Positions 4,780 to 22,879 of a stretch of 24,766 nucleotides of DNA are shown here, in pieces. Every line of letters begins with the position of its first letter. Position 1 is the first letter of the stretch. The translations under genes and the position numbers were made by a program. The notes below the pieces were generated by a model. That model did no database searches and was not told the DNA's origin. It saw only the letters and a program-made list of their open reading frames with translations. The stretch is from Candidatus Iainarchaeum sp. (lineage in GTDB: Archaea; Iainarchaeota; Iainarchaeia; Iainarchaeales; Iainarchaeaceae): positions 1-24,766 of the forward strand of contig JBDRLP010000060.1 in NCBI GenBank assembly GCA_043812975.1. The letters run 5' to 3'.

Positions 4780-5636
4780 TGCGCATCGACTCCGAAGTAT
4801 TTTTCTTTTAGCTGATTGAATATCATTGATGCTAGTTCTTGATTTTTCGTTATTGTTACTTCTATTTCTGCAGGGGTTTTCGAGATTTCTTGTTTTGCAT
4901 AATGCTTAAATAGATCTCCAAGGTCTTTTGTGTTGTTATAAACGTCATCCAGCATTTTTTTTGTTTTTTCTGAGTAATTAACTTCTACTATATAGTCGCC
5001 ATGTATTATGAAATCTTTTTTAAGATTCATTTTTTGTCCTGCCTTTATCCCTATAAAACCTGCTGCCTTGTATTGTTTTGCAATCCATCTGTCAAATGGT
5101 GAATCGCTTTCAAATATCCCGTATCCTCCAGAGTTGTTTTTCATCATGTTTATTAGTAAAGTAAAGTCCATAAATTTGAATTCCAATGGCCACCAAGCGT
5201 GTCTCAAGACCCCCATTCCTGTTGAAGGGTTTGTTTGAACTAGTTTTTTATCAGTAAAAAGCTGTGCAAGTTCCGTGCACATTTCACTGTAGTTATCAAA
5301 GAACCAAGTTTCTGTTCTATTTTCCTTTTCAGGAATTATATGGGTTTTTCCATTTTCTGAATATTTATCTTCAATGTTTTGTGCAATTTTTTTCAGGTTT
5401 TTTATCCAATTATGGCTTAGTTTGTATCCTTTTTCTTCTTTTGTTATTATTTCTTCTTGTGAAAGTTCCATTATAACCTTATGAATACCTTGATACGAGA
5501 TTTCTTTCCCAATTATTTTTTTATACCGGTTATAAATCTCTTTTCCACTCAAAGGCCATTCTTCAATGAGGAGTGAAATTACTCCATCCTTAGTTCCCTT
5601 GCTGTTGGCTGTTAACTGAACAAGTTCATTAATCAT
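4776..5636 (-). CDS. wHTH regulator paralog 5
   Basis: WPLSGKEIY...SYQGIHK wHTH; C-terminal RHAWWP, SPFDR, DFIIHGD, TKNQELA; ATGA overlap. Confidence 0.8.
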   Translation of the reverse strand: MINELVQLTANSKGTKDGVISLLIEEWPLSGKEIYNRYKKIIGKEISYQGIHKVIMELSQEEIITKEEKGYKLSHNWIKNLKKIAQNIEDKYSENGKTHIIPEKENRTETWFFDNYSEMCTELAQLFTDKKLVQTNPSTGMGVLRHAWWPLEFKFMDFTLLINMMKNNSGGYGIFESDSPFDRWIAKQYKAAGFIGIKAGQKMNLKKDFIIHGDYIVEVNYSEKTKKMLDDVYNNTKDLGDLFKHYAKQEISKTPAEIEVTITKNQELASMIFNQLKEKYFGVDAQ

Positions 5637-6463
5637 TTATGTTCCTCCATTTGTTTTTTGATGTTTTGTCTTGCTATTTCTGCTAGTTGTGGATTTTGAG
5701 TTATTTTCATTTCGATTTCTAAATCATTTGTATTATTTTTCATGTATTGTTTGAATAAGTCTGTTATGCTAAAGACATTTTGGTAAATTTTATCAAGTTT
5801 TTGTTTTGTTTCCTCAGAATATTTAACTTGAATAATTGTATGGCCTTGGACCATAATATCTTCATTCACATCAATATCTGCGCCAATAATTGCCTCTGAC
5901 CATTTCGCGATTCCATAATATTTTTTTATGAGTTTGTCGAAAGAAGAATTCCCTTGACAAATAACATGCGGTTTTGAAATAGCTCCAACACTTTTGCATA
6001 ATTCAAAATCCTTGAAACTGAATTTTAAAGGCCAGAAGAGATGCCTAGTCATAGCATAAACTTCAGTGTATTTTGGGCCGGCTAGTTTAGTGGAATTAAA
6101 CATATTTCCTAAAGCTAATGGAAAATCAGTATAATTATTGAATTTTAAAGTTTTTTCTTCATTAATAATTTGTTCATTTTCTTCATATGACAAATTAAGG
6201 CTATCAAAATAGTTTTTCGATTTTCCAATCCATTCTTTTGATAATTGGTATTTTTTATCAATTGATTGTATTGCTCCGTGGGATTCTAGTTCTTGGATGT
6301 TTTTGTGGGTTGCTTGATAAGTTGTGTTCAATCCTTGTTCTCTGATTAATGAGTTGTGTATTTCCTTTGCAGAAAGAGGCCACCTATTACCAAGAGTATG
6401 AATAATCAGTTCTTTTGTTGACTTAGTTTTGGGATCTAATGAAAGGAGTTCAATTTGGTTCAC
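5633..6463 (-). CDS. wHTH regulator paralog 4
   Basis: WPLSAKEIH...TYQATHK; RHLFWP, SSFDK, DIMVQG, TQNPQLA; GTGA overlap. Confidence 0.8.
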   Translation of the reverse strand: MNQIELLSLDPKTKSTKELIIHTLGNRWPLSAKEIHNSLIREQGLNTTYQATHKNIQELESHGAIQSIDKKYQLSKEWIGKSKNYFDSLNLSYEENEQIINEEKTLKFNNYTDFPLALGNMFNSTKLAGPKYTEVYAMTRHLFWPLKFSFKDFELCKSVGAISKPHVICQGNSSFDKLIKKYYGIAKWSEAIIGADIDVNEDIMVQGHTIIQVKYSEETKQKLDKIYQNVFSITDLFKQYMKNNTNDLEIEMKITQNPQLAEIARQNIKKQMEEHK

Positions 6464-7299
6464 TTTGTTTTCACCCTGAATTCTTTGAGCGTGTTTCTTC
6501 TTATTTCTTCGGCTATTTTTGGGTTGTGGATTACAAGGATTTTGTGTTTGAATTGTGTTTCGAATAGTGTGTTGAATATTTCTGAAATGTTCAGGTTTGT
6601 GAGACTTTTTGTCGCCTTGGAAAATTGGTCGTAAAGCTTTTTTCCCTTATAGTCAAAGTAGACATAAGCTATAAAATCGCCTTGAACAAGCGTGTCGGGC
6701 GTAAATGGTAGTTCTTTCCCGGTCTTTACTTTTGTTCCATGCTTTTCAAAGGCTTTTATGGCCATCTTGTCAAGGGGAGTGTTGGATGCAGCCAGAATGT
6801 ATGATTTTGTTGTTGTGAGGAATTCTTTTAAGCGCCTGAACTGGTTGTTTGACAGGGCTAATGTCGGCCATATGTGGTAAGTAAGGCTAGTATATGGGTC
6901 TTTATTTGGGTTTGGGAGAGTGCTGAATTCAAATAATACGAACTCCGCTATTTCAATGAATGTGTCAAACTCAAAGTACAATATTTTTTTCTCCCGCAGT
7001 TCCTCTGCATTTAAGGTTTTTGCTGTTTTTTCAATATTTTCCAGATGTTTTTTTGTATTCGCAATCCAGTTTATTTCAATGGTGTATTGGTGATTGTATT
7101 CTTTGAGTATTCCTGTTATTTGCATTTCTTTAAGCATTTTATGAACTGCTTGGTAAGATGAATTGTTAGCATACTGGCTTTTCAGTTCCGAATGAATCTG
7201 CTTGGCGCTGAGAGATTGCCTTTCGCCCAAAAGGCTGAGAATGTTGCTCTTGGTTGAGGTCTTGCCATTGCGTTTTTCCAACAGTAACTCGTTAATCAT
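6460..7299 (-). CDS. wHTH regulator paralog 3
   Basis: SLSAKQIH...SYQAVHK; YHIWP, TPLDK, DTLVQGD, HNPKIA. Start set at MINELL (7299) because of the ATGA overlap and upstream GGGAGG. Confidence 0.8.
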   Translation of the reverse strand: MINELLLEKRNGKTSTKSNILSLLGERQSLSAKQIHSELKSQYANNSSYQAVHKMLKEMQITGILKEYNHQYTIEINWIANTKKHLENIEKTAKTLNAEELREKKILYFEFDTFIEIAEFVLFEFSTLPNPNKDPYTSLTYHIWPTLALSNNQFRRLKEFLTTTKSYILAASNTPLDKMAIKAFEKHGTKVKTGKELPFTPDTLVQGDFIAYVYFDYKGKKLYDQFSKATKSLTNLNISEIFNTLFETQFKHKILVIHNPKIAEEIRRNTLKEFRVKTK

Positions 7300-8126
7300 T
7301 TCGCCGCCTCCCATGCTGTTTTGATTTCTTTTTTGAGGTGATTTGCAAGTTCACGGTCTTTGGTTATGATGATTTTTATTGTTCCTTTTTCTTCAAACAT
7401 TTGTTCAGGGTAGTTTTTTGTGAAAGCATCTATAGAATCTTTAACTTCGGTTGTAGCTTTTTTTACCATTGATTTTATTTTCTCTGGAAAATAAATCTGA
7501 TAAACTCTGTTGTCACTTACAACTATGTCGCAATTGCTCTCATAGTCAACTCCTAGTTTGACTTTATGTCCGATAGTTTTGTATGCCATAGAGGTAAACT
7601 TATCGACAAGCGTATTTCCTTTACATGCCATAATGCATTTTGTTTCTCCTGTTTTTTTGAACCAGTAATACTCATCTTTTTGCAAGGTAAAAATCCACCA
7701 CATATGATTATGAAATGAAACTGGATCTTTATAGGTTTTATTGTCAACTTCATCAGCAAATAACTCAAGCAATGTTCTTCCAAATTCGTGATAAGACTTG
7801 CAGTTTATAACTCTGATTTTCTTTTCCCCTTCGTTATTTTTTGTGATTCTTTCTTCAAGATCATCAAGCATTCTTTTGCTGTTTTTAACCCAATCTAGTT
7901 TTATAGAATATTTGTTGTCTATTTTGCCAACCATGCCTTCATTTTCAAGTTCAATAGTTGTCTTATGGATTGCTTGATAAGAAATATCGCTTGTAAATTC
8001 CTTGTGGATTTTGTTAAAAATTTCTTTAGCACTTAATGGCCATTCATTGCCAAGTATGTGCATAATCTGATCCTTTGTTGTTTTTGATTTAGTGCCTAAA
8101 CCTAAAGGGTTTATTGTGATATTCAT
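7296..8126 (-). CDS. wHTH regulator paralog 2
   Basis: WPLSAKEIF...SYQAIHK; HNHMWW, TLVDK, DIVVSD, TKDRELA; ATGA overlap. Confidence 0.8.
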   Translation of the reverse strand: MNITINPLGLGTKSKTTKDQIMHILGNEWPLSAKEIFNKIHKEFTSDISYQAIHKTTIELENEGMVGKIDNKYSIKLDWVKNSKRMLDDLEERITKNNEGEKKIRVINCKSYHEFGRTLLELFADEVDNKTYKDPVSFHNHMWWIFTLQKDEYYWFKKTGETKCIMACKGNTLVDKFTSMAYKTIGHKVKLGVDYESNCDIVVSDNRVYQIYFPEKIKSMVKKATTEVKDSIDAFTKNYPEQMFEEKGTIKIIITKDRELANHLKKEIKTAWEAAK

Positions 8127-8950
8127 TTTTTCACCTTTGATTCTTCATAAAGTTCTTTTGCTTCTTCAAGTAATGTGTCTGCAAGTTCTTTGTTTTTGAA
8201 GATTGTTACTTTTATTTCGCTTTTTCTTGTTCCAAATTCAAAGAGTTTCTGTATGTCAAAATCTTTTTCGCTTTTGGTTTCGGAATAAATGTTTTCCATT
8301 TCCTCTGAAAGTTCTTTTGGGAAGTACACCTGCATTATTTTGTTTCCTTCTGTGAAAGTGTCTATTTTTGCAGAGTAATCTTTTCCAACAACGATTTTTT
8401 TGCCAAGTTTTTCAACGTAATCCATTGTCATTTTATCAAGAAAAGTATCGCATGTGCATATGTTGTAATGGTTCCTGCTTGAGAAGAGCTTTTTCATTTT
8501 TTCATGCTCTTCCTGTGATGCTCCAGTCAAAGGATATGCGTGATGCCAGAAACATACGCATTCAACTGTTTTATCTGAAAAGTCCTCCGAGAAAAAATCA
8601 TTAATCAAAAATTTTCCCATTTCAATGTAAGAATTAAACTTGAGAAGAACCACGCCGTTCTGGGATTTTTCTTTCAGGTTGTTTTCCATGGTTTTGCTCA
8701 TGGAAGAAAGTTTTTTCACCCATGCAAAACTGACTTTGAACTTGTTGTTCTCTTTCTCAAGAACCTCTGTATCCTCAAGTTCCTTCAATGCCTTGAAAAT
8801 TGCCTGGTAGCTGCCAGAGAATGAGTGGTGTTTAACCATTTGGTTGTGAATTTCCTTTATGCTCAGCGGCCAGTTCTCTGAGAGAATTTGTATTATTTGG
8901 TTTTTAGTGCTTTTCTCGGCCAGTAAACCGAGACTGCTGGTCCCCGCCAT
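8123..8950 (-). CDS. wHTH regulator paralog 1 (first gene of the array)
   Basis: WPLSIKEIH...SYQAIFK; WHHAYP, TFLDK, DTFTEGN, FKNKELA. Confidence 0.8.
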   Translation of the reverse strand: MAGTSSLGLLAEKSTKNQIIQILSENWPLSIKEIHNQMVKHHSFSGSYQAIFKALKELEDTEVLEKENNKFKVSFAWVKKLSSMSKTMENNLKEKSQNGVVLLKFNSYIEMGKFLINDFFSEDFSDKTVECVCFWHHAYPLTGASQEEHEKMKKLFSSRNHYNICTCDTFLDKMTMDYVEKLGKKIVVGKDYSAKIDTFTEGNKIMQVYFPKELSEEMENIYSETKSEKDFDIQKLFEFGTRKSEIKVTIFKNKELADTLLEEAKELYEESKVKK

Positions 8951-9673: not shown

Positions 9674-9689
9674 AACTTTTTGGTTGATT
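9674..9689 (+). repeat. 16-bp direct repeat AACTTTTTGGTTGATT, identical to 8988-9003 and bracketing vapBC
   Basis: Exact match read directly from the sequence. Confidence 0.8.
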
Positions 9690-9699
9690 CTTGCGGTTT

Positions 9700-10392: not shown

Positions 10393-13300
10393 TTAGGGGG
10401 CGTGGTTCAGCACTATTTGCACGTCCACTGCGGTTATGACTCCGTCCCCGTCCACGTCAGAGCATGGATTTGAAGCGTAAGGCTCTATTCCAAGGGCTGC
10501 TTTTGTAATGTAATCCACATCCGCGGAATCAACTATCAGGTCATTGTTAATGTCCCCGAGTACAGAACTGCAAATTGACTCGTTGGAGCAAACGCTACTG
10601 GTTTTCCCCGGATTGGTGCATGAATCCTCTGTTTTTGGGTTTGAATCATCACAATCCGCATCTGTGAGGCAGGCAATTGTTTCATGCAAGCAAGATGCAT
10701 GAGCGGTTCCGCCTTCAGCACATGAATCCAATGTATAATCATTGCTGTCTGCACAGTCAATGTCGTTCATGCAGGCTATTTTCTGGTGCAGGCACTGGGA
10801 AGACACTAGTCCGGGGTTTTCACAGTAATCAATCGTGTACTCGCTGGAATCAGCACAGTCCGCATTGCTTATGCATGCTATTGCCTCGTAGGAGCAGGTC
10901 GCATTCCTGCTTCCGGGTTCGATACATGAGTCATGTGAATAGGGGTCAGAGTCATCACAATCAAGGTCGCTGAAACAGGCAATGTCATAATAATTGCATA
11001 AAGATTCTGTTGTTCCCGGATTTGTGCAGGTATCTTCAGTTGCCGGGTTATTGTCGTTGCAGTCTGTGTTTGTGAAGCAAGCTATTTGAGAATACTGGCA
11101 GGATGAATTAACCGTGCCCGGATTTGCACAAGTGTCTTTTGTGTAATTGTTTCCATCATTGCAGTCTGTGTTGGTGTTGCAGGCAAATATTTCGTTCTGG
11201 CATACTGATTCAGGCGTGCCAGGGTTTATGCAGGAATCTATTGTGAAATCGTTGGCATCATTACATTCGTTGTCATTGAAGCAGATTATTGTTTTGTTTT
11301 CGCAGTAAGAGTCAGGTGTTACAGGGTTAATACAATTGTCCTGTGTGTAATTGTCTGCGTCGTCACAGTCAGTGTTGTTAAGGCAGGTGATTTGCTGATA
11401 ACTGCATTGTGATTCTGGTGTTCCGGGTTCTAGGCAGATATCTTCGGTATAATCGTTTGAGTCATCACAATCGGTATTAGTATAACAGGCAACAGGAAGA
11501 GGAGTTATCAAAATAATCCATGTTTGTTCATTGGATAATTTCCCGTCAGATAAAACCACTTTTACATCAAACTGGCCTGTTGTTCCGACAGAAGATGTAA
11601 AAGTGTAATTGTTCCCTGTTCCTGATTCAACACCATCCACAAACCACGTGTAGATTAAGTTATCTCCGTCAATATCTGTTCCTGTTGCGTTAAAATCCTG
11701 GTTTTCTCCTTCGGTTATTGAAGGATTAGTTTCAGGGATAAATTCAGTTATTTCAGGTGCTGAATTAATGTGCTCTATATTTAATGTAAAATTTTGGGTT
11801 GTTTCAAGCAAACCATCAGAAACAGTTATTGTAATAATGTGAGTTCCCGCAACAATTTTTGTCGGAGTAAATGAAATTAATCCTGTGTTTATATTAATAT
11901 CAAACAATTCTGTATCATCAGAAAAAGTTAGTTGGTCTTCTTCAAAATCAGTTGCATTAATCTGTAAGCTGAAAGGTTCGTTTGTAATAGTAAACTGTTC
12001 CCCTATTGTGTCAATAATTGGAGGATTATTTGTGTGCACATCAAACTCGTAACCTATTTGTGAAACTTCTATTATTCCTCCTGAAGCAGTAATGAATTTT
12101 ACCGGCACGAGTACATTGTTGTCTTCGGACGGCAAAGTTCCAAGGTAAGTGTTTATTGCATCAGTAATATCAAGTTCCTGATTAAATCCATTTGTTTGTG
12201 TGAAATTGAAAATTTCAGTGTCGCCAACTATTATTCTGGGGTTGTCCGGCATTCCGACATTACTGATACAAATTTCAGTAGAATATATTCTCGGGGTTTT
12301 TCCTTCGTGTGCTGTATTCAACACTGCTTTCCAGTTGAACTTGTCCCCTATTTGATTGATTGGAATTTCTATTGTTTGTCCTTTGGATATTGACTGCCAG
12401 TTTATTCCATCAGGAGTAATATAATAATCAATGTTCTGCCCCTGTAGATTTTCATTTGCTGAAAAAGAAATTGTTTTTGTTTTGAATGGGATTTCTCCAA
12501 GGTAAAGTTCTTTTCCTGTCTTAAATTGTTGCATGTATATTTTGTGTGCAGCCTGCATATTACCTATTCCTCCAAAATGCCCCATGATATTACTGTAACT
12601 TTGGTTGTTTACATTGAAGTTTATGGTTTGTTCTGTTGGTTCCCATGTACAAAAATCAGGAATTTTGTTATCACTCATTGGTTGTTTGAAACTGCTTCCA
12701 AACCATCCGCCTTGTACTTGACATTGGGATTTTAAATTATCTGTATAAGTCCATGGAGCTCCGCTACTGCATGCTGTGCTCATTTCAAATAACCATTCAG
12801 TATTATTGCAGTAAGCATTGATTTGTATTGCACTAGCTATTCCTCTGTGTTGCGGGGTAAAGTGGAAGGCTCCAAATCCTACTTGATCGGATGTTACGGT
12901 CATTTCAGTGGATAAGAACTGCGGTCCAAGTGGAAGCCCTATAAACTTTTGGTTCCCGTCCGCAAAAATGTATTTTTGCGTTGTAGACTTTGTCTGGTCG
13001 AATGTATTATATGCATTATAACATTGGGTTGTTTTTGTATCTCCTCTGATTTTTAAGTAGGCGTTTTGTACTATTGCTTTTCTTGGGATTTCTGTGTGAA
13101 GTGTCTGTTCTCCTGCTGTTTCAAATTTTAGCAATGCTTTATTTTCATTAGTGTCAAATGTTTCCTTGAAATCACATGAACCATAAGTTCGATTAACGTC
13201 CTGTGTTGAACAGTAAGCATAATAGGTTCCTGAATTTACACAAACAGGATTTATTTCTCTTGAAAATAAAACATTATTTTCACAAACCCTTGGTTCAACA

Positions 13301-16131
13301 CTGACAACATTTCCGCAGTCAAAATCAACAAAGCACTCTATTTTTGGAGCGCCTATTTCTATTGTAATATTTTTTTCTGTGTTTGTAATTCCATCATCAG
13401 CGGTTATGGTAATAATGTGTATTCCTTCATCCGCTTCTGTTGTCTGCCATTCTCTGCTTGTTGAAAACGGTTCACTGATTGTTGTTTCGAGGAAATCGTT
13501 GTCCGCATCCAGAATGGTGTAGTCCAGTGTTATTGTGTCATACGCATCTGCATAAATGTATGATGGTGCAATTATCTGTGGCGGATTGTTTCCTGAAAAA
13601 GAAATTTTTGATATTTTTGACTTGTTTTCATAACTTGTTTCCAATAATAATTCGTAGTTTGCGTTGTAATCGTCAAATCCTTCAAGAGTTATTTCTTGTT
13701 TTGAATTTCCTTTCGGAATGCTTTTGTCGAATTCATCATCGCTCAAGAATTCATTATCTTTCAATAAAATGTATTTTGACCCTGCTTCGAGGGTTTTTCC
13801 TTTGTTCTCAAAGTTTGCGTTTATGACTGTTGTTCCGCGTGCGGATTCATCAAAATCTCTTACTATTTCTTTTATTATTAGGTATGATTTTGCAGTATAG
13901 TTTGTTTTGTATCCGTTATCTTCTTGCGGATTGTTTTTGGCTATTTGTTCTGAAAATATTGTTATTTGATTTCCTGAACTTCTGTCGCCATCAATTAGTT
14001 TTATGTAGCTGTAGTTGCTTCCTGAAACGTTTCTTGAACTGTAATTAAAACCAGCTTCTGATTTCGAATAAATGTAAAAACCCAGGTTTTCCTTGTTCCA
14101 GTTTGTCAGAGTTGCATAACTCCACGGTTCTTCGTTTTTTCTCCATCTTATTTTGTTGTCGTCTACTTTTTCAAGTTCGATTGTATAGCCCATAGGGGTG
14201 AGGTAATGGGTATATCCTCCGTTGTATGATTCATATAATTCCTGGTATGAATCTGGGTGAATAATCAGTTTTATTGGAAGGTCGTTTATTGAGAATCTTT
14301 TTTCCGGCAGGCTTACAAATGAAAATGATGCTCCGCTGCTTTGGTCATAAGTGGTTTCTCCTGTAGCCCGTGCTTCAGTATTTATATACATTCCTCCTTC
14401 CCCTATACCAAAGTTTCCTTGTCCGGGTGTGCTCCCTGCCGAATTTGACAGATATGTCTCAACGTCCCATGTATCTCTTATATGGTCTGGAAACGGCGTG
14501 TAAAAATATTCTTTCGACCCATCAAATTCCAAATCAACTTTCAATATCTCCGCGTTCACTTTAAAATTTGTCCTAGTTTTTTCTTCCCCATTTTCCTCAA
14601 ACTCAACTTCATAATCGTAAAACCCTTCTTCTTTTCCGATTTGGAATGAAAGCAATTCTATTTTTTGGGAGCCGCCCTCAAGGCTTATTTGTTGTTCAAC
14701 TATTGTGTTGTTGTCTTTTATTCTGAGTGTTCCGCTTACATGGTTTGGCGTGATGTTTTCAATCAATATTTTTGGCTGTATCCAGTCGTTTGGAAAGTAT
14801 TCTGTTTCAGTTTTAACTTCTTTTATTAAAATTGGCGAATAAGGAGTATAATCAACTCCGATTTCGATATTTCGATATAATTTGAATATTCCCTGTGAAC
14901 AATCAACTATTTCTATTGGGTTGATTTGTATTACAATTTTTTCTTTATCTTCTGTGTAGAGTTGTGAGAACTCTGCTTTTGATTCTTTTGTGTTTTGCAC
15001 GCAGGTTCTTTTCACAAGGCCGTTGTCCCATTCCGGAATATTTGCTGTTATTGTAACAGGATTTGATTTGGAGGTTACATTCACTTCCCTTATTATTGTT
15101 CCAAGCGGGAATTCTATTTCTGTTGTTGCATAAGGAAGAATTTCTTTTGCAATTGAAAGTTCTTGTATCGTTCCGTTAATATCTATTATTTCAAATCCAT
15201 TTTCCTCTTCAATCGTATAATCAGAGAAGTCCATTAGTATTTGTTTTGCGTAAATTGTTTCTGTTCCCTGTGCCTTGAATCCAAGGGATTGGGCAAACGG
15301 GAACACATTGTATTCCGCGAGGTTTCCGCATACTTTTTCAAGTTCTTTTTGGGTCAAAGTTGTTCCTGTAATATCCAAATAGGGTGCTCCGTAAAGCGAA
15401 TAATCGCTTATTATTGCCTGTTGCCCTCCTGTTCCGAATTCCCTTAAATTGTTTCTTGCGTTTCTGAACCTGTCCCCAAGAGTTGAGAATTTGTAGTACT
15501 GGTTTGTGCCAAAATTACTGTCATTCAATGCTAAAGAACAAACAATCGATTTTAAGAGCGTTGAGTTTGCTTTTCCGTTTGTTGCTATTAAAGCCCCTGC
15601 TTTTCCGCTTAGTTGTGAGGAAAAACTCTGATTTTTTCCCATTGTGGGCAGATAAGTTCCTGCGTAATCTATATCTGTTATTACAAGATTTCCTCCTGAG
15701 ATTGTTTCATCTAGCTGTATTTCTTCCAGATATTTGCTTCTGGTTTGAATTTTGCTGTTTTCTATTTTTCCGCCTGTCTGCACTATGAGCATTTTGTCTG
15801 CCGGAATGTTTTCTATTTCACTGAATCTCCAGTTGCTTGTTGCTTGTGCGTTTGCCCCGTATGTTTTTTCTAGTACGCTTCTTATTTGTTCTTCTGTGCT
15901 TTGCAATGCTATTGGTTTTGAAAACAATGGCAATCCTAAGGATTTATCAGTGTAATAGTTTGCTCCGTTGATGCCAATTTCTGTGTATTCAAGTGCATCT
16001 TCTATTTCTTTCATCGAGTCTCCCTGAATCCTTCCAACAGCCGCGGTTTCAAAATCCATTGGCAAAGCCATTGTTATTGAAGAAATCATCAGCGCGAAAA
16101 GCGCAACCAAAATTGTTTTTTGTGTATTCAA
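10393..16131 (-). CDS. Giant secreted multidomain protein: degenerate C25-like region, C25-propeptide-like domain, Ig/cadherin-like domains, Cys repeats, C-terminal dockerin
   Basis: Signal peptide MNTQKTILVALFALMISSITMA; GAGGTGG before TTG; NNPP/NSAP...DxDxDxL Ig-like units; dockerin GDINNDLIVDSADV...DVDGDGVITAVDV. Confidence 0.85.
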   Translation of the reverse strand: MNTQKTILVALFALMISSITMALPMDFETAAVGRIQGDSMKEIEDALEYTEIGINGANYYTDKSLGLPLFSKPIALQSTEEQIRSVLEKTYGANAQATSNWRFSEIENIPADKMLIVQTGGKIENSKIQTRSKYLEEIQLDETISGGNLVITDIDYAGTYLPTMGKNQSFSSQLSGKAGALIATNGKANSTLLKSIVCSLALNDSNFGTNQYYKFSTLGDRFRNARNNLREFGTGGQQAIISDYSLYGAPYLDITGTTLTQKELEKVCGNLAEYNVFPFAQSLGFKAQGTETIYAKQILMDFSDYTIEEENGFEIIDINGTIQELSIAKEILPYATTEIEFPLGTIIREVNVTSKSNPVTITANIPEWDNGLVKRTCVQNTKESKAEFSQLYTEDKEKIVIQINPIEIVDCSQGIFKLYRNIEIGVDYTPYSPILIKEVKTETEYFPNDWIQPKILIENITPNHVSGTLRIKDNNTIVEQQISLEGGSQKIELLSFQIGKEEGFYDYEVEFEENGEEKTRTNFKVNAEILKVDLEFDGSKEYFYTPFPDHIRDTWDVETYLSNSAGSTPGQGNFGIGEGGMYINTEARATGETTYDQSSGASFSFVSLPEKRFSINDLPIKLIIHPDSYQELYESYNGGYTHYLTPMGYTIELEKVDDNKIRWRKNEEPWSYATLTNWNKENLGFYIYSKSEAGFNYSSRNVSGSNYSYIKLIDGDRSSGNQITIFSEQIAKNNPQEDNGYKTNYTAKSYLIIKEIVRDFDESARGTTVINANFENKGKTLEAGSKYILLKDNEFLSDDEFDKSIPKGNSKQEITLEGFDDYNANYELLLETSYENKSKISKISFSGNNPPQIIAPSYIYADAYDTITLDYTILDADNDFLETTISEPFSTSREWQTTEADEGIHIITITADDGITNTEKNITIEIGAPKIECFVDFDCGNVVSVEPRVCENNVLFSREINPVCVNSGTYYAYCSTQDVNRTYGSCDFKETFDTNENKALLKFETAGEQTLHTEIPRKAIVQNAYLKIRGDTKTTQCYNAYNTFDQTKSTTQKYIFADGNQKFIGLPLGPQFLSTEMTVTSDQVGFGAFHFTPQHRGIASAIQINAYCNNTEWLFEMSTACSSGAPWTYTDNLKSQCQVQGGWFGSSFKQPMSDNKIPDFCTWEPTEQTINFNVNNQSYSNIMGHFGGIGNMQAAHKIYMQQFKTGKELYLGEIPFKTKTISFSANENLQGQNIDYYITPDGINWQSISKGQTIEIPINQIGDKFNWKAVLNTAHEGKTPRIYSTEICISNVGMPDNPRIIVGDTEIFNFTQTNGFNQELDITDAINTYLGTLPSEDNNVLVPVKFITASGGIIEVSQIGYEFDVHTNNPPIIDTIGEQFTITNEPFSLQINATDFEEDQLTFSDDTELFDININTGLISFTPTKIVAGTHIITITVSDGLLETTQNFTLNIEHINSAPEITEFIPETNPSITEGENQDFNATGTDIDGDNLIYTWFVDGVESGTGNNYTFTSSVGTTGQFDVKVVLSDGKLSNEQTWIILITPLPVACYTNTDCDDSNDYTEDICLEPGTPESQCSYQQITCLNNTDCDDADNYTQDNCINPVTPDSYCENKTIICFNDNECNDANDFTIDSCINPGTPESVCQNEIFACNTNTDCNDGNNYTKDTCANPGTVNSSCQYSQIACFTNTDCNDNNPATEDTCTNPGTTESLCNYYDIACFSDLDCDDSDPYSHDSCIEPGSRNATCSYEAIACISNADCADSSEYTIDYCENPGLVSSQCLHQKIACMNDIDCADSNDYTLDSCAEGGTAHASCLHETIACLTDADCDDSNPKTEDSCTNPGKTSSVCSNESICSSVLGDINNDLIVDSADVDYITKAALGIEPYASNPCSDVDGDGVITAVDVQIVLNHAP
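10576..11493 (-). repeat. Nine tandem 34-aa (102-bp) Cys-rich coding repeats
   Basis: Consensus IACxxxxDCxDxNxYTxDxCxNPGTxxSxCxxxx, nine units counted from VACYTNTDC to SVCSNES. Confidence 0.9.
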
Positions 16132-16154: not shown

Positions 16155-16649
16155 TTATTTATTGTAATCCTCCTTTGGTAGTTTTATAACGTAAGTTTTT
16201 GCTGCCTTGTCGTGTATGCCTTGTTTTTTTGAGTCAAAAATTATCCATAAGTGCACAAACTTGAACACAACCAAGAAAAATTCCTCTATTATCCATCGCA
16301 CTGTGGCATCTTTCCAACTCAGTTTTTTTCCGTTGGTCTTAACAACTTTCAAGTTCATCCACTTCTTGCCGTAAGTTTGTCCTGTTTTTTTGTAAAAATA
16401 AATAAAATACGCTTGAGTAAAAATCAGCCAAAGAATGACTACTATTGGCCATATGATTTCCCAAACATTTTCCGCTATTTCACCTATTTCTGGGTTGATG
16501 TTTTGTAATCCATTAACTATTCCTGCAAATGAGATTCCTAAAATGAAAAGTACTCCAAATACAATAATAAAATCCAGAGCAAGGGCAACTAGCCTTTCCA
16601 GAAACCCGCCGTATTTGGCTTGGGGTGTTTTTCCATTATTTTCATTCAT
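16155..16649 (-). CDS. RDD-family membrane protein
   Basis: YGGFLERLVALALD, GQTYGKKWMNLKVV, KKQGIHDKAAKTYV signature motifs. Confidence 0.92.
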   Translation of the reverse strand: MNENNGKTPQAKYGGFLERLVALALDFIIVFGVLFILGISFAGIVNGLQNINPEIGEIAENVWEIIWPIVVILWLIFTQAYFIYFYKKTGQTYGKKWMNLKVVKTNGKKLSWKDATVRWIIEEFFLVVFKFVHLWIIFDSKKQGIHDKAAKTYVIKLPKEDYNK

Positions 16650-16717
16650 TATTCTTCACACGCCTCAATTTCTTCAACAGTTATTCCATTATTTCCTTCA
16701 AGAATTTCTTTTTTCAT
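16649..16717 (-). CDS. 22-aa micro-ORF or internally deleted gene remnant
   Basis: MKKEILEGNNGITVEEIEACEE*; ATGA overlap with the upstream stop and TAATG overlap with the RDD start. Confidence 0.45.
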   Translation of the reverse strand: MKKEILEGNNGITVEEIEACEE

Positions 16718-17229
16718 TTTTTCACATCCTTTAAACCAGGAACATTTTTTGCTTCGAGGACTTCAATATCAACTAAGTATGCGCCTGCTCTCCAATCATC
16801 ACCATAAGGTGTACTAGCAGTTTCAATCCTCAATACATCTAAATCTTTGTTAATTGCAATTCTTCCAGTAATCTTCTGAGTATCGCCTTTGAATCTTTTA
16901 ACATACTCTTTTGCAGTGATTTTTTGAGTTGTGCCAAAGTCTATGTATTCATTTTCATTCAATACTTTATTTTGTATAAAATGTAATTTTATAGGAATAA
17001 TCTTGAAGCTCTTCTTCGTCCTTACATTAGTAAGGCTTTTTGAGAAGCGTTCTCCAGAGGGTGGTGGAGCATACTCGTATAATTCAATGTCATTGAAATA
17101 CTGAATTTTTCCAGTTAGTTTTATTTTGTACCGAGAGATTAAATTCATAAAACCTGATACGTTTCCATCTTTATCTATTTCAATTTTGAATTCTTTCAGA
17201 ACTTTATGCTTTCCTAATGAAATGGTCAT
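16714..17229 (-). CDS. Hypothetical soluble protein, candidate immunity protein
   Basis: 171 aa; starts 5 nt after the subtilase stop, with GGAGG upstream; no recognisable family. Confidence 0.65.
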   Translation of the reverse strand: MTISLGKHKVLKEFKIEIDKDGNVSGFMNLISRYKIKLTGKIQYFNDIELYEYAPPPSGERFSKSLTNVRTKKSFKIIPIKLHFIQNKVLNENEYIDFGTTQKITAKEYVKRFKGDTQKITGRIAINKDLDVLRIETASTPYGDDWRAGAYLVDIEVLEAKNVPGLKDVKK

Positions 17230-17234
17230 ATTTA

Positions 17235-20200
17235 TTACCTCCAGAAAACTTCCTTTGTAATTGTATCATATACTTTTATTTTAGATGTCCCTGGCATCTG
17301 GGGTAGTGCTTCTTGGATTGTAGACTCAATTTGGGTCTTTGTTAATTTTGTTCCCTTCTCTAGTTCAATCACTTGAATCCCTCCAGTGCCTAATGATTCA
17401 AATTTATTTTTTCTACTATCACTTAATAATTTCCCATATAAATTTTGTTCCGAAATTAACTCCCCTTCCATTTTTGTAGAATCAATCCAATAATCTTTTC
17501 CTCCTACTTTAATAAAATTGTCTGCATCTTTTCCGTCAGGTAAAAGCTTTTTAACTTCTACATTTTTTAATGTACCATCTGGATTAAGTTCTATTGCTTG
17601 TTTAACTAAGCTATCGTCAAATTCTCCACTTTTCTTCATTGCAATCATTATTGCATCGCCTTGTTCATCAGGGGATAGTTCAATATATTTGTGTAATCCT
17701 TTCTTTTCAACAGCACTCCAACTTTCTGCTCCAAGCCCTTTTACTGCTCTTCCTAGTGATTCAATATTTCTGAGTGGCATGTCTCCAAAGTCAGTTAGCA
17801 TTTTGAGTGTTGTTTCTAGTGTTGGTTTGCCTTGGCTTGTGAGGTGTATGAATGTTTTGGTTGATTCTACTGCGTCATCTGTTCTTTTTGCAATAAACTC
17901 TGCTGCGGTTCCGAGTAGATGTGGTGATTCTTCTATTGTTTTTAGTGCGGGTTTGAGTATTGGTTTTGGCACTAGTTTGCTTGCTTTTTTAAGTGAGACT
18001 TTGAATAGTGCCAGTCCGAAATCTACTCCTTCTCCTGGCACAAAGGACGCTCCAACGCTTAGGACTGCTGCTCCGTATGATGCTATGTCATAACCTGTTG
18101 CGACATGTATTATGCCACATACAAAGTGGTCTACTTCTGTTAGTGTAGATCCCTCTGTAATGTATTGCCAGACACACCTTCCTGAGTCAACTGCATCAGG
18201 AGCTAATTCAACTATTGGAATAACATTGCAGGTGATGTTTGTTGCGAATTCTGTTGCGTCCAAATCCTCGTCCAATCCAATGCATGCGGCCACGAAGTCG
18301 CCGAAGTTGTAGGCGTAGAATCTTTTGTCAACAATGTCCTGCCCTAATCTGTAAAGTGCGTCTTCTGGCATGGAGAGGCTTTCCTGTTTGATTATGAATG
18401 CGTATGATTTTTGCATTAGTATTGCATCGCCCCAGACATTTCTTCTAACCGAATAGTTTGCCATGCCTGTGTCGAAGAAGCGTTCGCAGCCAAGTGCATT
18501 GTTGTTCTCAAGCGTTCCAATCAAAATCAATGTTTTTCCAGCAAGTTTGTTGTTCAAAAATCCGGGTTCACAGGTTATTTCTGAAGATAAATATTCGTCT
18601 ATGCTGTTTACATTGTAGTTTGCTTGTATTTCTGTTTTGAGTGTGTTGATAATTGTTCTCAGTTTAGAGCCTTGCACAATATTATTCGGAATAACAAGTG
18701 CTACTCTCCGTTCCTCAAAAGTATTATCTGTTTCTCCAAATGAAGCGGTTGAATAAGTTGAGTATGCAATATCAGTAAAAATAGCAGGCGCTTCTTCGTT
18801 TCCAGCAATTGGAATCCTCGCTTGTGGCACAACATAATCATCTCCCACAATGAGTACGTGTTTGCAGTATTCGATTGGGCATCTTCCTTTGATGAAGCTG
18901 GAGATTTTTTGAACATAAGCATTAACTGTTCCTGTTGTTGGGTTTGAAAGTGTTTCTTTATAAGTACTCCAAACAGTAAAAGGAGAGCTACCAACCTCGT
19001 CCCTGTATTCACTTAAATCGTAAACCACTCCCTGGTTTTTGGAGGCTTTTAAATAAAGGGTTTGCATTAAAGCAGCAACCCTGGCTGGTTCCTCATAGCG
19101 TTGTTCGAGTTTTGAAGAATCGGTTACAATGATGGTTTGTGGTAATGACACGTTGATTGTTCTTGATGAAAAAGAATCAGGGGTGTTTACTTTGAAGTAA
19201 AAAGGTTTTTTTGGTGCTGAAGAACTGATTGTGAAATCACAATAATTGTTTCCGGGGGTTAGTGTTTTTGAGGTAAATGCAGTGCATTCAGTTCCTTCGA
19301 AAACTGATTCATCATACTCAAGGCTTACTGTTAAATCACTTGCCTGCCTGTTCACAAGATTAATTTGCAATTTATCTCCTCGTTGTTTGTAAACAGGCAA
19401 TCCCAGAGGAGATTCCTCAATTTCTATTGCAAACTGCTTCTGAGAACTGTCACAATAAGCAAGCCCTGAACCATTATCAACACAAATCCCTATTCCGCAG
19501 GATTCAAACTTAACCTTGTTTGAAAATGTTTCCCCGTCAAAATAACATGTTTCAACATTGCCTGTATTTGAATTGCAAGTGCTTTTTCCAAGCTCAGCAT
19601 CAGTGCAGGAATCATCTCCCGGATTAATACAGGCAGCATCCATGCACTCCTGATTTGGTGAACAAATGTTTTTCACAGGTGTTTCTGTTGTTGTTTCACA
19701 TGAACTCTGAACAGTTCCTTCGTTTAAGCAGGTTCTTGTTATTCTTTCCTGCATTACATTGCCATCAACTGCAGAACAATAAGGAGTATTTGTCCAGCCA
19801 GAATAACCGCAATCAGAATCATCATAACAGGTCACTGGATCAGGGTCACAGGTTCCTGTTTCCGCATTGCATATTTTATCCTCACAATCCTCTATTTTGG
19901 TTCCTTCATCAGAATCTATTGCTCCGGCACAATCACTTGAGTTTCCTGAACAGTACTGCTGGTCTGTAACAAGATAAACAGTTTTCCGTTTTGGCGAAGT
20001 GTTTGTTCCGCCCCTGCACTGGAAGAAAGTTCCTGTATTATTATTGCAAATGCTTGTGCTTGGCTTGAAAGTATTATAATTAAGGTTACAGCAAACCCCG
20101 GAAGCACATCCTTCTATTACTGTAAAAACATTGCTCTGTAAATACTCATTTTCAAACGGAGGAACTACACAAGAATAACTTGAGGAAGAATGACATGCAC

Positions 20201-22796
20201 CGTCATACAATTGTCCTGTGCATGAATCCCATGAGAATGCAGTTACATCATAATTCCCAATTGGTGCATCCGTTGGAACAATATAATCAAAGTAAACATC
20301 TTTCCCAACTGTTGACGGCTGCCAGTATTCCTGCGGGGCAGTATCACATGAATAAGAGTTGTTTTTTATGATTAAATTCCCGTGGTAAAAATCAGAATCA
20401 AATGCAATCGGGTTATTGTATTTTGCAATTAAGGTTATTGCTTTACCTTTTCCTATTTCCCCGTCAAGGTTTGTTCCTTCTGCCCTGACCTGAACAGGCC
20501 TTGAGATTTCTATTAAAAATTCTTTTTCTGGGTCAAAGCTTGTTGTTCCTTCAACAATCTCTAATTCTATTTGATGCGACAAAATGTAATCATTAATTGC
20601 TAAGAGGAGTTCTGCTGAATGTTTTCCTAATCCGAGTTGTTGTTGGTCAGCTGTGATAAATAAGTAAGACTCTGAATCAATGATGATTTCTTGTGGGTAA
20701 GAAACATGAAGCCATTCTTCAGTTATGTGGTCCCTTATTCTTGCTGTTTCTCCAGTGCTGTTAAAGAGCCTTATTTTTGCCTCGAACTTTTCATCATCCA
20801 GGCCGATTGTTACTATAGTAGGGTTTCTGGTTAGGGTTATTGTTTTTGGGTTAACCAAATCAATTTCCGCAAGAGCTTTATTGGCGTCTATTAAACCAAA
20901 CCCGTAAAGGTCATCTTTTCCTTTGACCCCTAAATCCAATGCACTTTTTGCCATTATGTTCCTTATTTCTCCAGGAGAAAGCAATGGGTTTTTTTCAAGC
21001 AATAATGCCGCTGTTCCTGATGCGAACGCAGCGCTCATTGATGTTCCGCTTTGTGTATTTGTTGAATCAAACAACCATGAACTTGTAATATTTTCTCCTG
21101 GTGCAACAAGATCCGGTTTTGCTCCATAATTTTGGATGTATCCTCTTGAAGAAAAACCTGAGTGTTTGTTTTGTTCATCCACAGAGCCTATTGTAAGCGC
21201 ATATTTTGAACTCCCTGGAAAAGTTAAACCAGTATACCCTTGGCATGAAGTGCTTGGTTGTTCATAACCACAGTTGCCGGAAGAAGTTACAATAAGAACG
21301 CCCATTGCTTCCGCTTCCATTATTGCTGTTTCGAGCGGTGAATTTTCAAAATCCCCTATTGCGCCGAAGCTCATATTGATTATGCGTGCTCCGTCGTTTG
21401 TTGAAATGTCATTATCCGGATTTAGAGCAAAATTTATCGCCGCTATTATTGAGGAAATGCTTCCTGAACCATTGCTGTTTAGTGCTTTTGCATTTATTAT
21501 TTTTGCATCAGGAGCAACTCCATTATAGTGTCCTCCATTACTCGTATTTCCGGATATTATTCCTGCTATGTGGGTTCCGTGACCGTGACCATCATCAGGG
21601 TTTCCTTCATCAGTGAAATCTGCTTTCGCGGAAATTTTCCCCGTGAGCATTGGGTTTGAATCATCAACCCCTGTATCAATTATCGCCACTCTAATGTTTC
21701 TTCCTGTAAAGCCAAGTTCTCTTGCATTTTGTGCTTTTACCTGAGGAATCGATTCGGTTAGAAGAATTTTTACTTTTTCATCCTTCACTATTCTTTTGGT
21801 TTCTGGAGCTGTTGCTAATTCAAATGCTTTATTTTCCGGCAGTTCAGCTACTACTATGTTTCCAATGTTTGCTGCAAATTTCACGGTTCCTCCGAGTGCT
21901 TTTATGTTGGCTGCTGTTTGAAGCAACTCTTCTTCACTTTGTGATTCTACTATTAATTGAGTTACGTTTGTGTTAGCTTCTGAGATTCCTGCTTTTACTT
22001 TGCCTGCGTTGTTTTGGGGTGACTTTGCTTGACTTAAAGACGGTGAAAGATTTCCTGTTTGGGCATCTGATGTGTCCACAAATGTTTGTGTACAGCCTAT
22101 ACAATTCTGTTCTATTTTTTCAAGTTTTTTCTGTAAAAATAATCCTAGTTTGCTTTTTCCTTTTCCGAAGAATTTTTCCTCCTCAGGAATTGGTTTTTTG
22201 GGTTCTTCCTGAACTGGCGGGTTAGGATTATTTGGTTCTTCATTTGGCGGTTCAGATTGAGGGTCTCCTCCAGAGGCGGAATTACTTGGTGAAGCATTAT
22301 CTGATCCACCAGATCCCCCTCCGCCCCCTCCTCCTCCGCAGGCTTTTTTCCAGTCCCTGCCGAGTTTCTGTGTGGTGAGTCTCATGTTGTAGCATTTTTC
22401 TGCTTTTGCTTTCAAAAAAGGATTCAGGTCATCAATGCATTTGCCGTACATCTGTCTCATTTCGGGGCAAGTTAGATTATTTGTTTTCTGTTGTGTTTGT
22501 CCTGTAACCGAATTTATAATTCTGTTTAAAGTGTTTGTCGATTTTTCTGTTTTAGGTATTTCGTAATTGTTCTCTTGATTTGAAATTTCTCTTGGTATTG
22601 CGTATTCCTCTTGGGAAAGATTTTCCTGTTGATCTGAATCTGCTGTGGGCAGGATTGTGAATCCAGTTATCTGTTCTATTGCAAAGCTTCCTATAAACAA
22701 GGTAACCAGTAACCCCAGTACTGCCAGAAGGCTGAGGGTTGTTATTAACCAGAATTTTTGCTTTTTTGTTCTGCCCGCTAGTTTTTTCAAGTTCAT
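17235..22796 (-). CDS. Membrane-anchored S8 subtilase megaprotein with Cys-rich region, C25-like N-subdomain and putative C-terminal toxin tip
   Basis: Triad IIDTG (Asp 21675-21677), HGTH (His 21579-21581), GTSM (Ser 21039-21041); N-terminal TM helix then ITGF; Gly/Pro linker. Start set at ATG 22796 (GGTGG upstream, TATA at 22836-22843). Confidence 0.88.
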   Translation of the reverse strand: MNLKKLAGRTKKQKFWLITTLSLLAVLGLLVTLFIGSFAIEQITGFTILPTADSDQQENLSQEEYAIPREISNQENNYEIPKTEKSTNTLNRIINSVTGQTQQKTNNLTCPEMRQMYGKCIDDLNPFLKAKAEKCYNMRLTTQKLGRDWKKACGGGGGGGGSGGSDNASPSNSASGGDPQSEPPNEEPNNPNPPVQEEPKKPIPEEEKFFGKGKSKLGLFLQKKLEKIEQNCIGCTQTFVDTSDAQTGNLSPSLSQAKSPQNNAGKVKAGISEANTNVTQLIVESQSEEELLQTAANIKALGGTVKFAANIGNIVVAELPENKAFELATAPETKRIVKDEKVKILLTESIPQVKAQNARELGFTGRNIRVAIIDTGVDDSNPMLTGKISAKADFTDEGNPDDGHGHGTHIAGIISGNTSNGGHYNGVAPDAKIINAKALNSNGSGSISSIIAAINFALNPDNDISTNDGARIINMSFGAIGDFENSPLETAIMEAEAMGVLIVTSSGNCGYEQPSTSCQGYTGLTFPGSSKYALTIGSVDEQNKHSGFSSRGYIQNYGAKPDLVAPGENITSSWLFDSTNTQSGTSMSAAFASGTAALLLEKNPLLSPGEIRNIMAKSALDLGVKGKDDLYGFGLIDANKALAEIDLVNPKTITLTRNPTIVTIGLDDEKFEAKIRLFNSTGETARIRDHITEEWLHVSYPQEIIIDSESYLFITADQQQLGLGKHSAELLLAINDYILSHQIELEIVEGTTSFDPEKEFLIEISRPVQVRAEGTNLDGEIGKGKAITLIAKYNNPIAFDSDFYHGNLIIKNNSYSCDTAPQEYWQPSTVGKDVYFDYIVPTDAPIGNYDVTAFSWDSCTGQLYDGACHSSSSYSCVVPPFENEYLQSNVFTVIEGCASGVCCNLNYNTFKPSTSICNNNTGTFFQCRGGTNTSPKRKTVYLVTDQQYCSGNSSDCAGAIDSDEGTKIEDCEDKICNAETGTCDPDPVTCYDDSDCGYSGWTNTPYCSAVDGNVMQERITRTCLNEGTVQSSCETTTETPVKNICSPNQECMDAACINPGDDSCTDAELGKSTCNSNTGNVETCYFDGETFSNKVKFESCGIGICVDNGSGLAYCDSSQKQFAIEIEESPLGLPVYKQRGDKLQINLVNRQASDLTVSLEYDESVFEGTECTAFTSKTLTPGNNYCDFTISSSAPKKPFYFKVNTPDSFSSRTINVSLPQTIIVTDSSKLEQRYEEPARVAALMQTLYLKASKNQGVVYDLSEYRDEVGSSPFTVWSTYKETLSNPTTGTVNAYVQKISSFIKGRCPIEYCKHVLIVGDDYVVPQARIPIAGNEEAPAIFTDIAYSTYSTASFGETDNTFEERRVALVIPNNIVQGSKLRTIINTLKTEIQANYNVNSIDEYLSSEITCEPGFLNNKLAGKTLILIGTLENNNALGCERFFDTGMANYSVRRNVWGDAILMQKSYAFIIKQESLSMPEDALYRLGQDIVDKRFYAYNFGDFVAACIGLDEDLDATEFATNITCNVIPIVELAPDAVDSGRCVWQYITEGSTLTEVDHFVCGIIHVATGYDIASYGAAVLSVGASFVPGEGVDFGLALFKVSLKKASKLVPKPILKPALKTIEESPHLLGTAAEFIAKRTDDAVESTKTFIHLTSQGKPTLETTLKMLTDFGDMPLRNIESLGRAVKGLGAESWSAVEKKGLHKYIELSPDEQGDAIMIAMKKSGEFDDSLVKQAIELNPDGTLKNVEVKKLLPDGKDADNFIKVGGKDYWIDSTKMEGELISEQNLYGKLLSDSRKNKFESLGTGGIQVIELEKGTKLTKTQIESTIQEALPQMPGTSKIKVYDTITKEVFWR

Positions 22797-22829
22797 TGGT
22801 TTCCCCACCAAAGTGAAATAATCCTGTTT

Positions 22830-22879
22830 CGAGTACTTATATACCTGCGGTTGATTGGGAATCAACTAAATGGTTGATT
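22830..22879 (-). promoter_or_regulatory. 50-bp promoter/operator cassette, copy A
   Basis: On +: CGAGTA..ATATACCTGCGGTTGATT-GGG-AATCAAC-TAAATG-GTTGATT; 44/50 identical to 23854-23903; contains minus-strand TATATAAG. Confidence 0.8.

Follow-up and report, generated by a model that had tools for sequence, protein, structure and literature searches.

A locus on a 24,766-nucleotide stretch of DNA from a Candidatus Iainarchaeum sp. (hereafter, the window) probably encodes a polymorphic contact toxin of DPANN archaea, i.e., a very large carrier that is likely exported and that joins a conserved body to an exchangeable tip (here a predicted PD-(D/E)xK nuclease). The carrier is accompanied by a conserved partner and by a small protein that likely provides cognate immunity. 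We observed the architecture, the polymorphism of the tips, the pairing of tips and downstream genes in the window's tip family, and the linkage to the partner. The initial annotation had proposed a polymorphic toxin, and the pattern of body, tip, and downstream gene supports this proposal well; obligatory self-processing by the S8 domain and the accessory roles given to the RDD and dockerin proteins were not retained.

Organization of the locus

The large open reading frame (ORF) and the adjacent 171-aa ORF are both real and lie on the minus strand. The former spans 17235-22865 (-) and, from an ATG at 22796 that is served by a ribosome-binding-like site (GGTGGGG), encodes 1853 aa; an alternative TTG start lies at 22865, with a TATA-like box (22843-22836) downstream of it. 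The features of the locus are as follows.

22860..22879 (.), putative palindromic operator AATCAAC-N6-GTTGATT, preceding the promoter of the carrier gene
17235..22796 (-), predicted toxin/carrier gene, 1853 aa
22677..22754 (-), N-terminal hydrophobic segment (signal or anchor), residues ~15-40, from hydropathy
20895..21704 (-), S8 subtilase domain, residues 365-634, triad D374/H406/S586, from Pfam and the triad; optional in the family
19422..20294 (-), acidic stalk rich in Cys (27 in residues 835-1125)
18750..19154 (-), conserved body domain 1, residues 1215-1349, alpha/beta, IxGDDxVVPxxR...IYTDxxY, from conservation and a model
18309..18749 (-), flavodoxin-like body domain 2, also conserved, residues 1350-1496
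17901..18254 (-), pre-toxin segment, helical and containing conserved Cys, residues ~1515-1632
17667..17900 (-), helical bundle moving together with the window's tip family, residues 1633-1710
17238..17666 (-), predicted PD-(D/E)xK nuclease tip, residues 1711-1853, conserved D1714, D1759, and D1772; K/Q/H at 1796
16714..17229 (-), predicted cognate immunity protein of 171 aa, soluble and basic, belonging to no known family
16155..16649 (-), RDD membrane protein, lacking conservation among related loci
10393..16131 (-), partner protein of 1912 aa, preceded by a signal peptide
~15322-16071 (-), N-terminal C25-like pseudo-protease of the partner, conserved
3907..8950 (-), six tandem paralogous winged-HTH-like genes, 231-286 aa

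No paralog of the carrier or 171-aa gene was found in the organism's own 1.24-Mb genome, and an Rfam search gave no match. Four sequencing runs yielded pieces of ~150-235 nt, in which no joint with a tip swap was seen. A 222-nt piece from an RNA library was considered as a sign of transcription and rejected.

Architecture of the carrier

The carrier consists, in order, of an N-terminal hydrophobic segment, an S8 domain with an intact triad, a Cys-rich stalk, an unnamed conserved body, and the tip; the first three had been recognized in the initial annotation and were all confirmed. Residues 12-45 are hydrophobic (maximum KD19, 2.58) and could be an anchor or a cleaved signal. By its hydropathy, the segment would provide the export signal expected of a polymorphic toxin system, and the carrier is likely exported. 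Pfam Peptidase_S8 matches residues 365-634 far above its cut-off (E = 8.5e-54; 183 bits versus 21.8), and no second S8 match occurs anywhere in the genome. The triad is intact in 30 of the 31 S8-bearing carriers. However, 19 of the 50 complete-looking long carriers lack the domain, as do short signal-peptide forms that start inside the body (20/150 among the matches listed). Thus, self-processing by the fused S8, as proposed in the initial annotation, cannot be obligatory. The S8 domain likely trims the carrier or the protein coat of the target, yet it is dispensable in the family.

Body domain 2 resembles the S-layer anchoring domain of Methanococcus and BcsB. The pre-toxin segment that follows is modeled as helical with a low pLDDT. 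It contains CNVIPIVELAPDAVD from residue 1523 (base 18230) and VPGEG at residue 1586; the sequence reported earlier is therefore present, but the small-residue hydrophobic stretch attributed to it is weak (maximum KD19, 1.15) and gives no clear membrane span. Homology to relatives with different tips stops within this segment, which is likely a translocation or switch region and the site of tip exchange. No long repeat was found at the tip junction. A drop in C3/(C3+T3) near residue 1680 was set aside, since shifts elsewhere in the carrier gene are at least as large.

Polymorphism of the tips

Residues 1215-1853 of the carrier matched 162 clusters. About 160 clusters make up the body family, whose named members belong to Iainarchaeota and Woesearchaeota, and the body is present in 134 of 150 among the matches listed. 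In the same set, the tips of the 99 members whose body and tail are complete sort into 34 unrelated groups, i.e., variable C-terminal domains on a conserved part, as the initial annotation had anticipated for a polymorphic toxin. Bodies that are 55-67% identical bear unrelated tips, and the closest body relative of the window among the matches listed (P0003; 50%) has a different one. Body and tip relationships were compared by nearest-neighbour counts. Three genomes (G145, G149, and G156) that match body domain 2 only and lack the partner were treated as outliers; two loci from them (L042 and L043) were kept in the count of 48 pairs used below.

Most tips have no Pfam name, and in several groups the tip is helical and no enzyme motif could be recognised. 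A Scabin-like ADP-ribosyltransferase tip scored above the Pfam cut-off in one relative (P0056) and below it in four others, and kinase-like and SprT-like tips scored below their cut-offs. Toxin enzyme folds are thus represented by this Scabin-like tip and by the window's tip. More than one body ORF is present in 12 of 53 loci, and these are predicted to be tandem extra toxin/immunity cassettes.

The window's tip

The earlier suggestion of a PD-(D/E)xK nuclease core was strengthened by the topology of the model, fold neighbours, and conserved acids. The Atlas neighbours of the tip are CDI and Tox-REase domains (0.85-0.92). An AF2 model (pLDDT, 93.7) retrieved PD-(D/E)xK proteins in the top rows of a Foldseek search, none at E <= 0.001; the match to 4g6v_A had a probability of 0.99 (TMt, 0.47; rmsd, 4.0; identity, 17%). 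This structure (PDB 4G6V) is the CdiA-CT of Burkholderia pseudomallei 1026b, a PD-(D/E)xK tRNase whose catalytic residues (E187, D214, D223, and K242), in the part of PMC9086364 available, comprise three acids and a displaced later Lys. In the 14 sequences compared, an acid is found at D1759 in 14, at D1772 in 13, and at D1714 in 12; the canonical catalytic Lys position is S/T in 13/14, while position 1796 is K/Q/H in 13/14. The tip is therefore predicted, from the model, to be a PD-(D/E)xK nuclease that would use D1714, D1759, and D1772, perhaps with K1796 as a Lys contributed by a helix further along the chain, an arrangement like that of the 4G6V tRNase; residue equivalence is taken from order alone, and the delivery route differs. 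The motif GKDADN...DSTK is located at residue 1755. The tip was correctly described as Lys-rich (13% versus 5.9%), but its net charge is acidic (pI 5.2). It also occurs on unrelated carriers, given that five of the seven long relatives tested lack the body.

The downstream gene

The tight linkage of a small downstream gene was upheld: the 171-aa ORF begins 5 nt past the carrier stop codon. In 46 of the 48 unique loci, the gene after the tip encodes a soluble protein of 78-357 aa and starts at -64 to +11 nt. When downstream genes are related, the tips are usually related as well (12/15 pairs versus 34/1113 otherwise), although similarity of downstream genes is absent in 34 of the 46 tip-related pairs. 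A homolog of the 171-aa protein is encoded at both other loci with the window's tip (E = 2e-21 and 2e-6), and relatives of this protein were found only behind relatives of that tip. By sequence comparison, the downstream gene co-varies with the tip in the window's tip family, and the 171-aa protein, which is basic (pI 9.5), is likely the cognate immunity protein.

The partner protein and a possibly divided fold

A partner is encoded downstream in 17 of the 23 loci that leave 3 kb or more for it. It occurs in 9 of 215 genomes of the phylum, 8 of which are body positive. After the C25-like domain come a beta region, which is also conserved, Ig/PKD domains, Cys repeats, and finally a dockerin. 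Against an in-phylum C25 profile, its N-terminus aligned with C25 positions 153-466 (hhalign P, 89.8%; E = 2e-7); the alignment starts at the GR(I/L) motif and reaches the LxGxP motif at the end. The aligned catalytic Cys is absent in 19/19 rows (Tyr in 17, Phe in 1, and Ala in 1), and His-Gly is kept in 1/20, so the partner differs from gingipains (Peptidase_C25) in having no His-Cys dyad. At the sequence level, the partner N-terminus appears similar to the final two-thirds of a gingipain fold without catalytic activity. Body domain 1 weakly resembles the first third, and its GDD..VP..TD..Y motif is similar to the part of C25 that precedes the partner-aligned part. The dead gingipain-like fold appears to be divided over two or three genes. 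The dockerin-ending protein, previously viewed as an accessory, is more than a loose one: with its N-terminal domain, which co-occurs with the toxin, it supplies the system's conserved partner.

In five loci (three distinct sequences), the body is itself split across genes at position 62-65, and in some relatives each gene carrying a part has a signal peptide. This splitting suggests toxin cartridges that may assemble on a scaffold. We tentatively extend it to a DPANN toxin-delivery machine working by fold complementation, a scheme less likely than not, in which the dead gingipain-like fold would be shared by a protease-bearing stalk, separately exported toxin cartridges, and the large partner, so that a cell could mount several different tips on one surface scaffold against rivals for host cells.

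As a contact toxin, the carrier would be exported and held at the cell surface, where its body would dock on the partner, both likely completing one dead gingipain-like fold beside the S-layer-anchor-like domain. On contact, disulfide-bonded pre-toxin helices might bring the tip into a neighbouring cell, in which it would cut tRNA or DNA. The basic 171-aa protein would bind the acidic tip, protecting the producer and its clonal siblings. Most likely, the targets are DPANN relatives that compete with the producer for the surface of the same host.

Alternative explanations

A narrower mechanism, close to that of the initial annotation, is that the carrier is anchored in the membrane as one chain and that its S8 domain releases the tip in cis without the help of the partner. 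This would accord with the intact triads here and in 30 of 31 S8-bearing carriers. In the available parts of the literature, S8 activates a polymorphic toxin in staphylococci (PMC13556192) and subtilisin is a listed processing protease of Sec-exported toxins (PMC3482391). Such a mechanism is nevertheless doubtful, since the S8 is missing from many complete-looking long carriers (19/50), short forms start within the body (20/150 among the matches listed), and the constant companion is the partner rather than the S8. The toxin might instead be an effector that a parasitic DPANN cell directs at its host or prey, with the small gene guarding the producer during synthesis only. The genome size (1.24 Mb), the Diapherotrites/Iainarchaeum relatives, the mostly symbiotic or parasitic life of DPANN (PMC6393860, as far as available), and the universal targets of the nuclease, ADP-ribosyltransferase, and kinase-like tips are compatible with this role. 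We regard it as unlikely because the rapid exchange of tips along with their cognate small genes, the tandem cassettes, and the additional small genes indicate conflict among relatives; systems against distant targets often lack adjacent immunity genes, according to the available part of Zhang et al. (2012; PMC3482391). The patchy distribution (0/5 same-genus genomes, 63-92% complete, matched) is also unfavourable.

A surface protein for feeding or recognition (an ectoprotease and ectonuclease scavenging host or debris), in which the tips reflect substrate or adhesion diversity, is very improbable. It would account for the secreted protease, the S-layer-anchor-like domain, the dockerin/PKD partner, and the helical tip groups without a recognisable enzyme motif, but not for the tightly coupled cytoplasmic gene that stands behind each tip and changes with it, or for the movement of the window's tip among unrelated secreted carriers. 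ADP-ribosyltransferases and kinases, moreover, require intracellular cofactors, on which the corresponding tips would depend.

Comparison with known systems

Archaeal polymorphic toxin groups, predicted to be contact toxins, were reportedly surveyed by Makarova et al. in 2019 (mBio). Split-fold docking, if it holds, would be a delivery principle for which no published account was found in the literature covered. Archaeal polymorphic toxins were called predicted but untested in 2021, in the available part of PMC8416519, which describes VARTIG, i.e., hypervariable archaeal surface proteins in which an Ig domain varies rather than an enzyme tip. With Sec-exported polymorphic toxin systems, as characterized in the available part of Zhang et al. 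(2012; PMC3482391), our locus shares the signal, carrier, variable C-terminal enzyme, adjacent immunity gene, extra cassettes, and subtilisin among the processing proteases. It differs in its DPANN hosts, in extra cassettes that retain their own signal peptides, and in a carrier body, partner, and immunity family for which no Pfam or NCBIfam name was found. The S8-PTS of Gram-positive bacteria (Li et al. 2022, PMC9424270; Mwangi et al. 2026, PMC13556192; available parts) likewise combine an S8 peptidase with polymorphic toxins (BECR and restriction-endonuclease-like) and immunity genes. They have a separate single-domain S8 gene and a small diffusible BetaH-fusion toxin, whereas in our family the S8 domain is part of the carrier (1400-2800 aa) and optional, and there is a large conserved partner. 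In S8-PTS, a BetaH domain of ~120 aa directly follows the signal peptide; the architecture here differs, and our body is modeled as alpha/beta and then helical.

Attack or competition by small-genome DPANN archaea is an open question, for which the family supplies a marker domain, a conserved partner, and a putative regulator site. It yields many unnamed predicted toxin and immunity families, and about 48 predicted soluble tip/immunity pairs are testable in laboratory strains, though the organisms are uncultured.

Neighbouring genes and regulatory elements

The RDD protein, previously listed as an accessory part, was rejected as a core part, given that it was seen in the window alone among the loci examined. 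Upstream of the carrier gene, a half site and then the TATA-like box come after the operator. The 1.24-Mb genome contains five exact copies of the operator, compared with none for spacers of 3-5 and 8-10 and one for a spacer of 7. The operator is also found near toxin loci of relatives and, in the window, upstream of the six winged-HTH-like genes (8984-9003), whose sequences suggest that they are likely regulators.

Shared carrier body and exchangeable tips

The 1,853-aa protein encoded in the window is probably a polymorphic contact toxin with a cognate immunity protein, displayed with the aid of a partner protein and aimed mainly at related cells. A search with its residues 1215 to 1853 yielded 162 clusters at 50% identity, and the body (about residues 1215 to 1470) was present in 134 of the 150 matches listed. 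The initial annotation had called for homologues with a conserved body and different tips, and these were found: among the matches listed, the last 130 to 140 residues formed at least 34 groups in 99 members (phmmer) or at least 45 groups in 111 tips (BLAST). Unrelated tips often sat on bodies that were 55 to 67% identical. For 18 of the 99 members, the nearest body neighbour belonged to the same tip group, a share biased low because library clustering discards close same-tip relatives.

In a Pfam scan of 137 of the 150 listed proteins (the omitted 13 were short or partial hits), a Scabin-like ADP-ribosyltransferase domain scored above the cut-off in P0056 and below it in four other relatives, and kinase-like and SprT-like tips remained under the cut-off. 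Among 48 tips cut from the loci, none reached a Pfam cut-off. Other tip groups carry motifs that we take to be those of BECR RNases, further PD-(D/E)xK domains, and HExxH peptidases.

Of 215 genomes in the phylum, 12 matched the body (3 of the 12 as weak partial matches); it was detected in 7 of 22 genomes of the same family and in none of the 5 genomes of the same genus (63 to 92% complete). Relatives of the gene occur in Ca. Diapherotrites and Ca. Iainarchaeum, and Ca. Woesearchaeota was the named source of 1 of 10 proteins looked up; the locus sample includes 40 metagenome loci without taxonomy.

Probable toxin gene and downstream gene

The window corresponds to contig C60 in a genome of 1.24 Mb and 68 contigs. 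Its large ORF starts at an ATG (position 22796) that has a ribosome-binding-like site, and a TATA-like box lies upstream. The previously described hydrophobic N terminus, S8 domain (residues 365 to 634; E = 8.5e-54; triad D374/H406/S586), Cys-rich stalk, and quoted motifs were all found in this ORF, and the reported tight linkage holds, as the 171-aa ORF starts 5 nt past its stop. The Lys-rich tip and hydrophobic pre-toxin stretch (i.e., the helical segment before the tip) were likewise seen, but the hydrophobicity of the stretch is mild (KD19, 1.15) and the tip is net acidic, while the 171-aa protein is basic. On its flanks (window 9300-10322 and 22956-23255), the locus has PIN-domain genes and a gene with weak similarity to ParE/RelE whose small partner lies upstream; the whole is set in a toxin-antitoxin-rich island.

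Among 5.8 billion proteins, four others are related to the 171-aa protein, which belongs to no named family. The loci supplied 52 toxin/next-gene pairs, of which 48 were unique. In 46 of the 48, the next gene encodes 78 to 357 aa without a membrane segment and starts between -64 and +11 nt; only the outlier loci L042 and L043 depart from this. Homologs of the 171-aa protein lie behind the tip in both other loci with the window tip (L016 and L024) and behind no other tip among the unique pairs. Across 1,128 pair comparisons, tip and next gene were both related in 12, the tip only in 34, the next gene only in 3, and neither in 1,079 (Fisher P = 2e-15, which overstates the association because related pairs are not independent). 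Downstream similarity is missing in most tip-related pairs, including one with a tip E value of 5e-74, which counts against pairing; the unlike next genes may reflect immunity genes that diverge quickly or are replaced. A nontoxic protein for feeding or recognition seems very improbable.

Cys-rich zinc-ribbon-like small genes were observed behind several helical tips (L023:4773-5066, L068, L070, and L071). In L046:5017-8139 and L057:10489-13718, the main toxin and partner genes are separated by strings of additional small genes or of short toxin/immunity cassettes with signal peptides.

A predicted nuclease tip

The atlas neighbours of the window tip are CDI and Tox-REase domains. Its AlphaFold model (15 aligned rows; pLDDT, 93.7) begins with a helical bundle and continues into an alpha/beta core. 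The proposed PD-(D/E)xK-like nature of the tip is supported by this predicted model, for which the leading Foldseek rows were mostly PD-(D/E)xK proteins (SfsA, E = 3e-3; 4g6v_A, E = 9e-3, probability 0.99; Cdn1; and restriction enzymes), none reaching an E value of 0.001. Acidic residues are conserved across 14 tip rows (D1759, 14/14; D1772, 13/14; D1714, 12/14); S/T occupies the canonical Lys position in 13 of 14, and position 1796 is K/Q/H in 13 of 14. According to PMC9086364, the 4G6V tRNase (Burkholderia pseudomallei CdiA-CT) has three acids and a later Lys; the window tip appears alike, with putative residue equivalence.

Five of the seven long relatives of the window tip lack the body, so this tip moves between carriers. 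Other secreted carriers with this tip (P0117, P0126, P0132, P0147, and P0053), four of about 1,240 aa with CarboxypepD_reg-like domains and one a Laminin G/DUF2341/PKD protein, are probably further unnamed toxin families.

Constant and variable parts of the system

The dockerin-ending protein had been regarded as an accessory, a view that no longer fits: its N-terminal 460 aa are a constant part of the system. They were found downstream in 22 of 53 loci (some of them duplicates), a share that rises to 17 of 23 where 3 kb or more of sequence follows. Of 215 genomes, 9 carry this region, and the body is present in 8 of these. The partners differ in their C termini, and a membrane anchor closes 1 of the 8 complete proteins. 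RDD, also proposed as an accessory, was seen in the window alone among the loci examined.

The carrier would be exported and dock on this partner, the tip would enter via the pre-toxin helices and act as a nuclease, and the cognate immunity protein would protect the producer. That toxin cartridges and partner divide one C25-like fold is a tentative model, on the doubtful side. Pfam C25 matched 24 of 215 phylum genomes, 18 above the cut-off (L085-L113), many matches lying in 900- to 1,800-aa ORFs with HG and AC motifs kept; gingipain-like proteases in intact form are common in the phylum.

Obligatory release of the tip in cis by the fused S8 domain, with no need for the partner, is compatible with a toxin. 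The triad is intact here as annotated, but the protease is not constant: 50 complete-looking long carriers comprise 30 with the full triad, 1 with an unaligned His, and 19 without S8. We consider such release unlikely, and a host-directed effector somewhat less likely still.

The probable contact toxin system displays the testable features of polymorphic toxin systems set out in Zhang 2012 (PMC3482391). It would work much as S8-PTS does (Li 2022, PMC9424270; Mwangi 2026, PMC13556192), but the separate S8 gene of that family is missing here. A figure of Makarova 2019 BST reportedly depicts archaeal loci whose tips are of the colicin D and PD-DExK types, and the carrier family may already be in the Makarova 2019 mBio archaeal survey or its supplement. 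In literature that largely excluded subscription journals, we came across no DPANN system described as having either this carrier or a split C25 partner.

Operator and candidate regulators

A palindrome (AATCAAC-N6-GTTGATT) lies just 5' of the TATA-like box of the toxin gene.

Exact palindrome copies (five in the genome) and candidate regulator genes
Window 8984-9003, palindrome
Window 22860-22879, palindrome
Window 23884-23903, palindrome
C36:12884 (same genome, G000), palindrome
C41:45470 (same genome, G000), palindrome
Window 3907-8950 (-), six tandem paralogous genes, 231-286 aa, 25-31% identity, weak wHTH hits at the N terminus
Window 23459-23752 (-), HTH-like gene encoding 97 aa, with an operator copy of its own

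Against these five N6 copies, the genome holds none with spacers of 3 to 5 or 8 to 10 and one with 7. An extended element (half site plus TATA-like box) common to four of the five suggests a small regulon, as judged from sequence. One copy precedes the six HTH-like paralogs, a family with no further copies elsewhere in the genome, and another precedes a TrmB gene on C36. Homologs of the six paralogs flank toxin loci in genomes G020, G007, and G017, and in G010 and G012 the toxin has a homolog of the 97-aa gene upstream. Exact or near palindromes precede toxin loci in G020, G014, G019, G010, G007, G012, and L082; in most metagenome carriers, the upstream 260 nt yielded none. The HTH proteins may control the palindrome-bearing promoters.

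Close to the operator-preceded TrmB gene, locus L124 (L124:1666-6742; G000 C36:7165-12241) encodes, in this order, an unnamed protein of 1,082 aa, a soluble one of 190 aa, and a secreted one of 396 aa with dockerin and Kunitz protease-inhibitor domains, the latter unusual in an archaeon. The arrangement resembles that of a toxin/immunity locus, a second one unrelated to the first.
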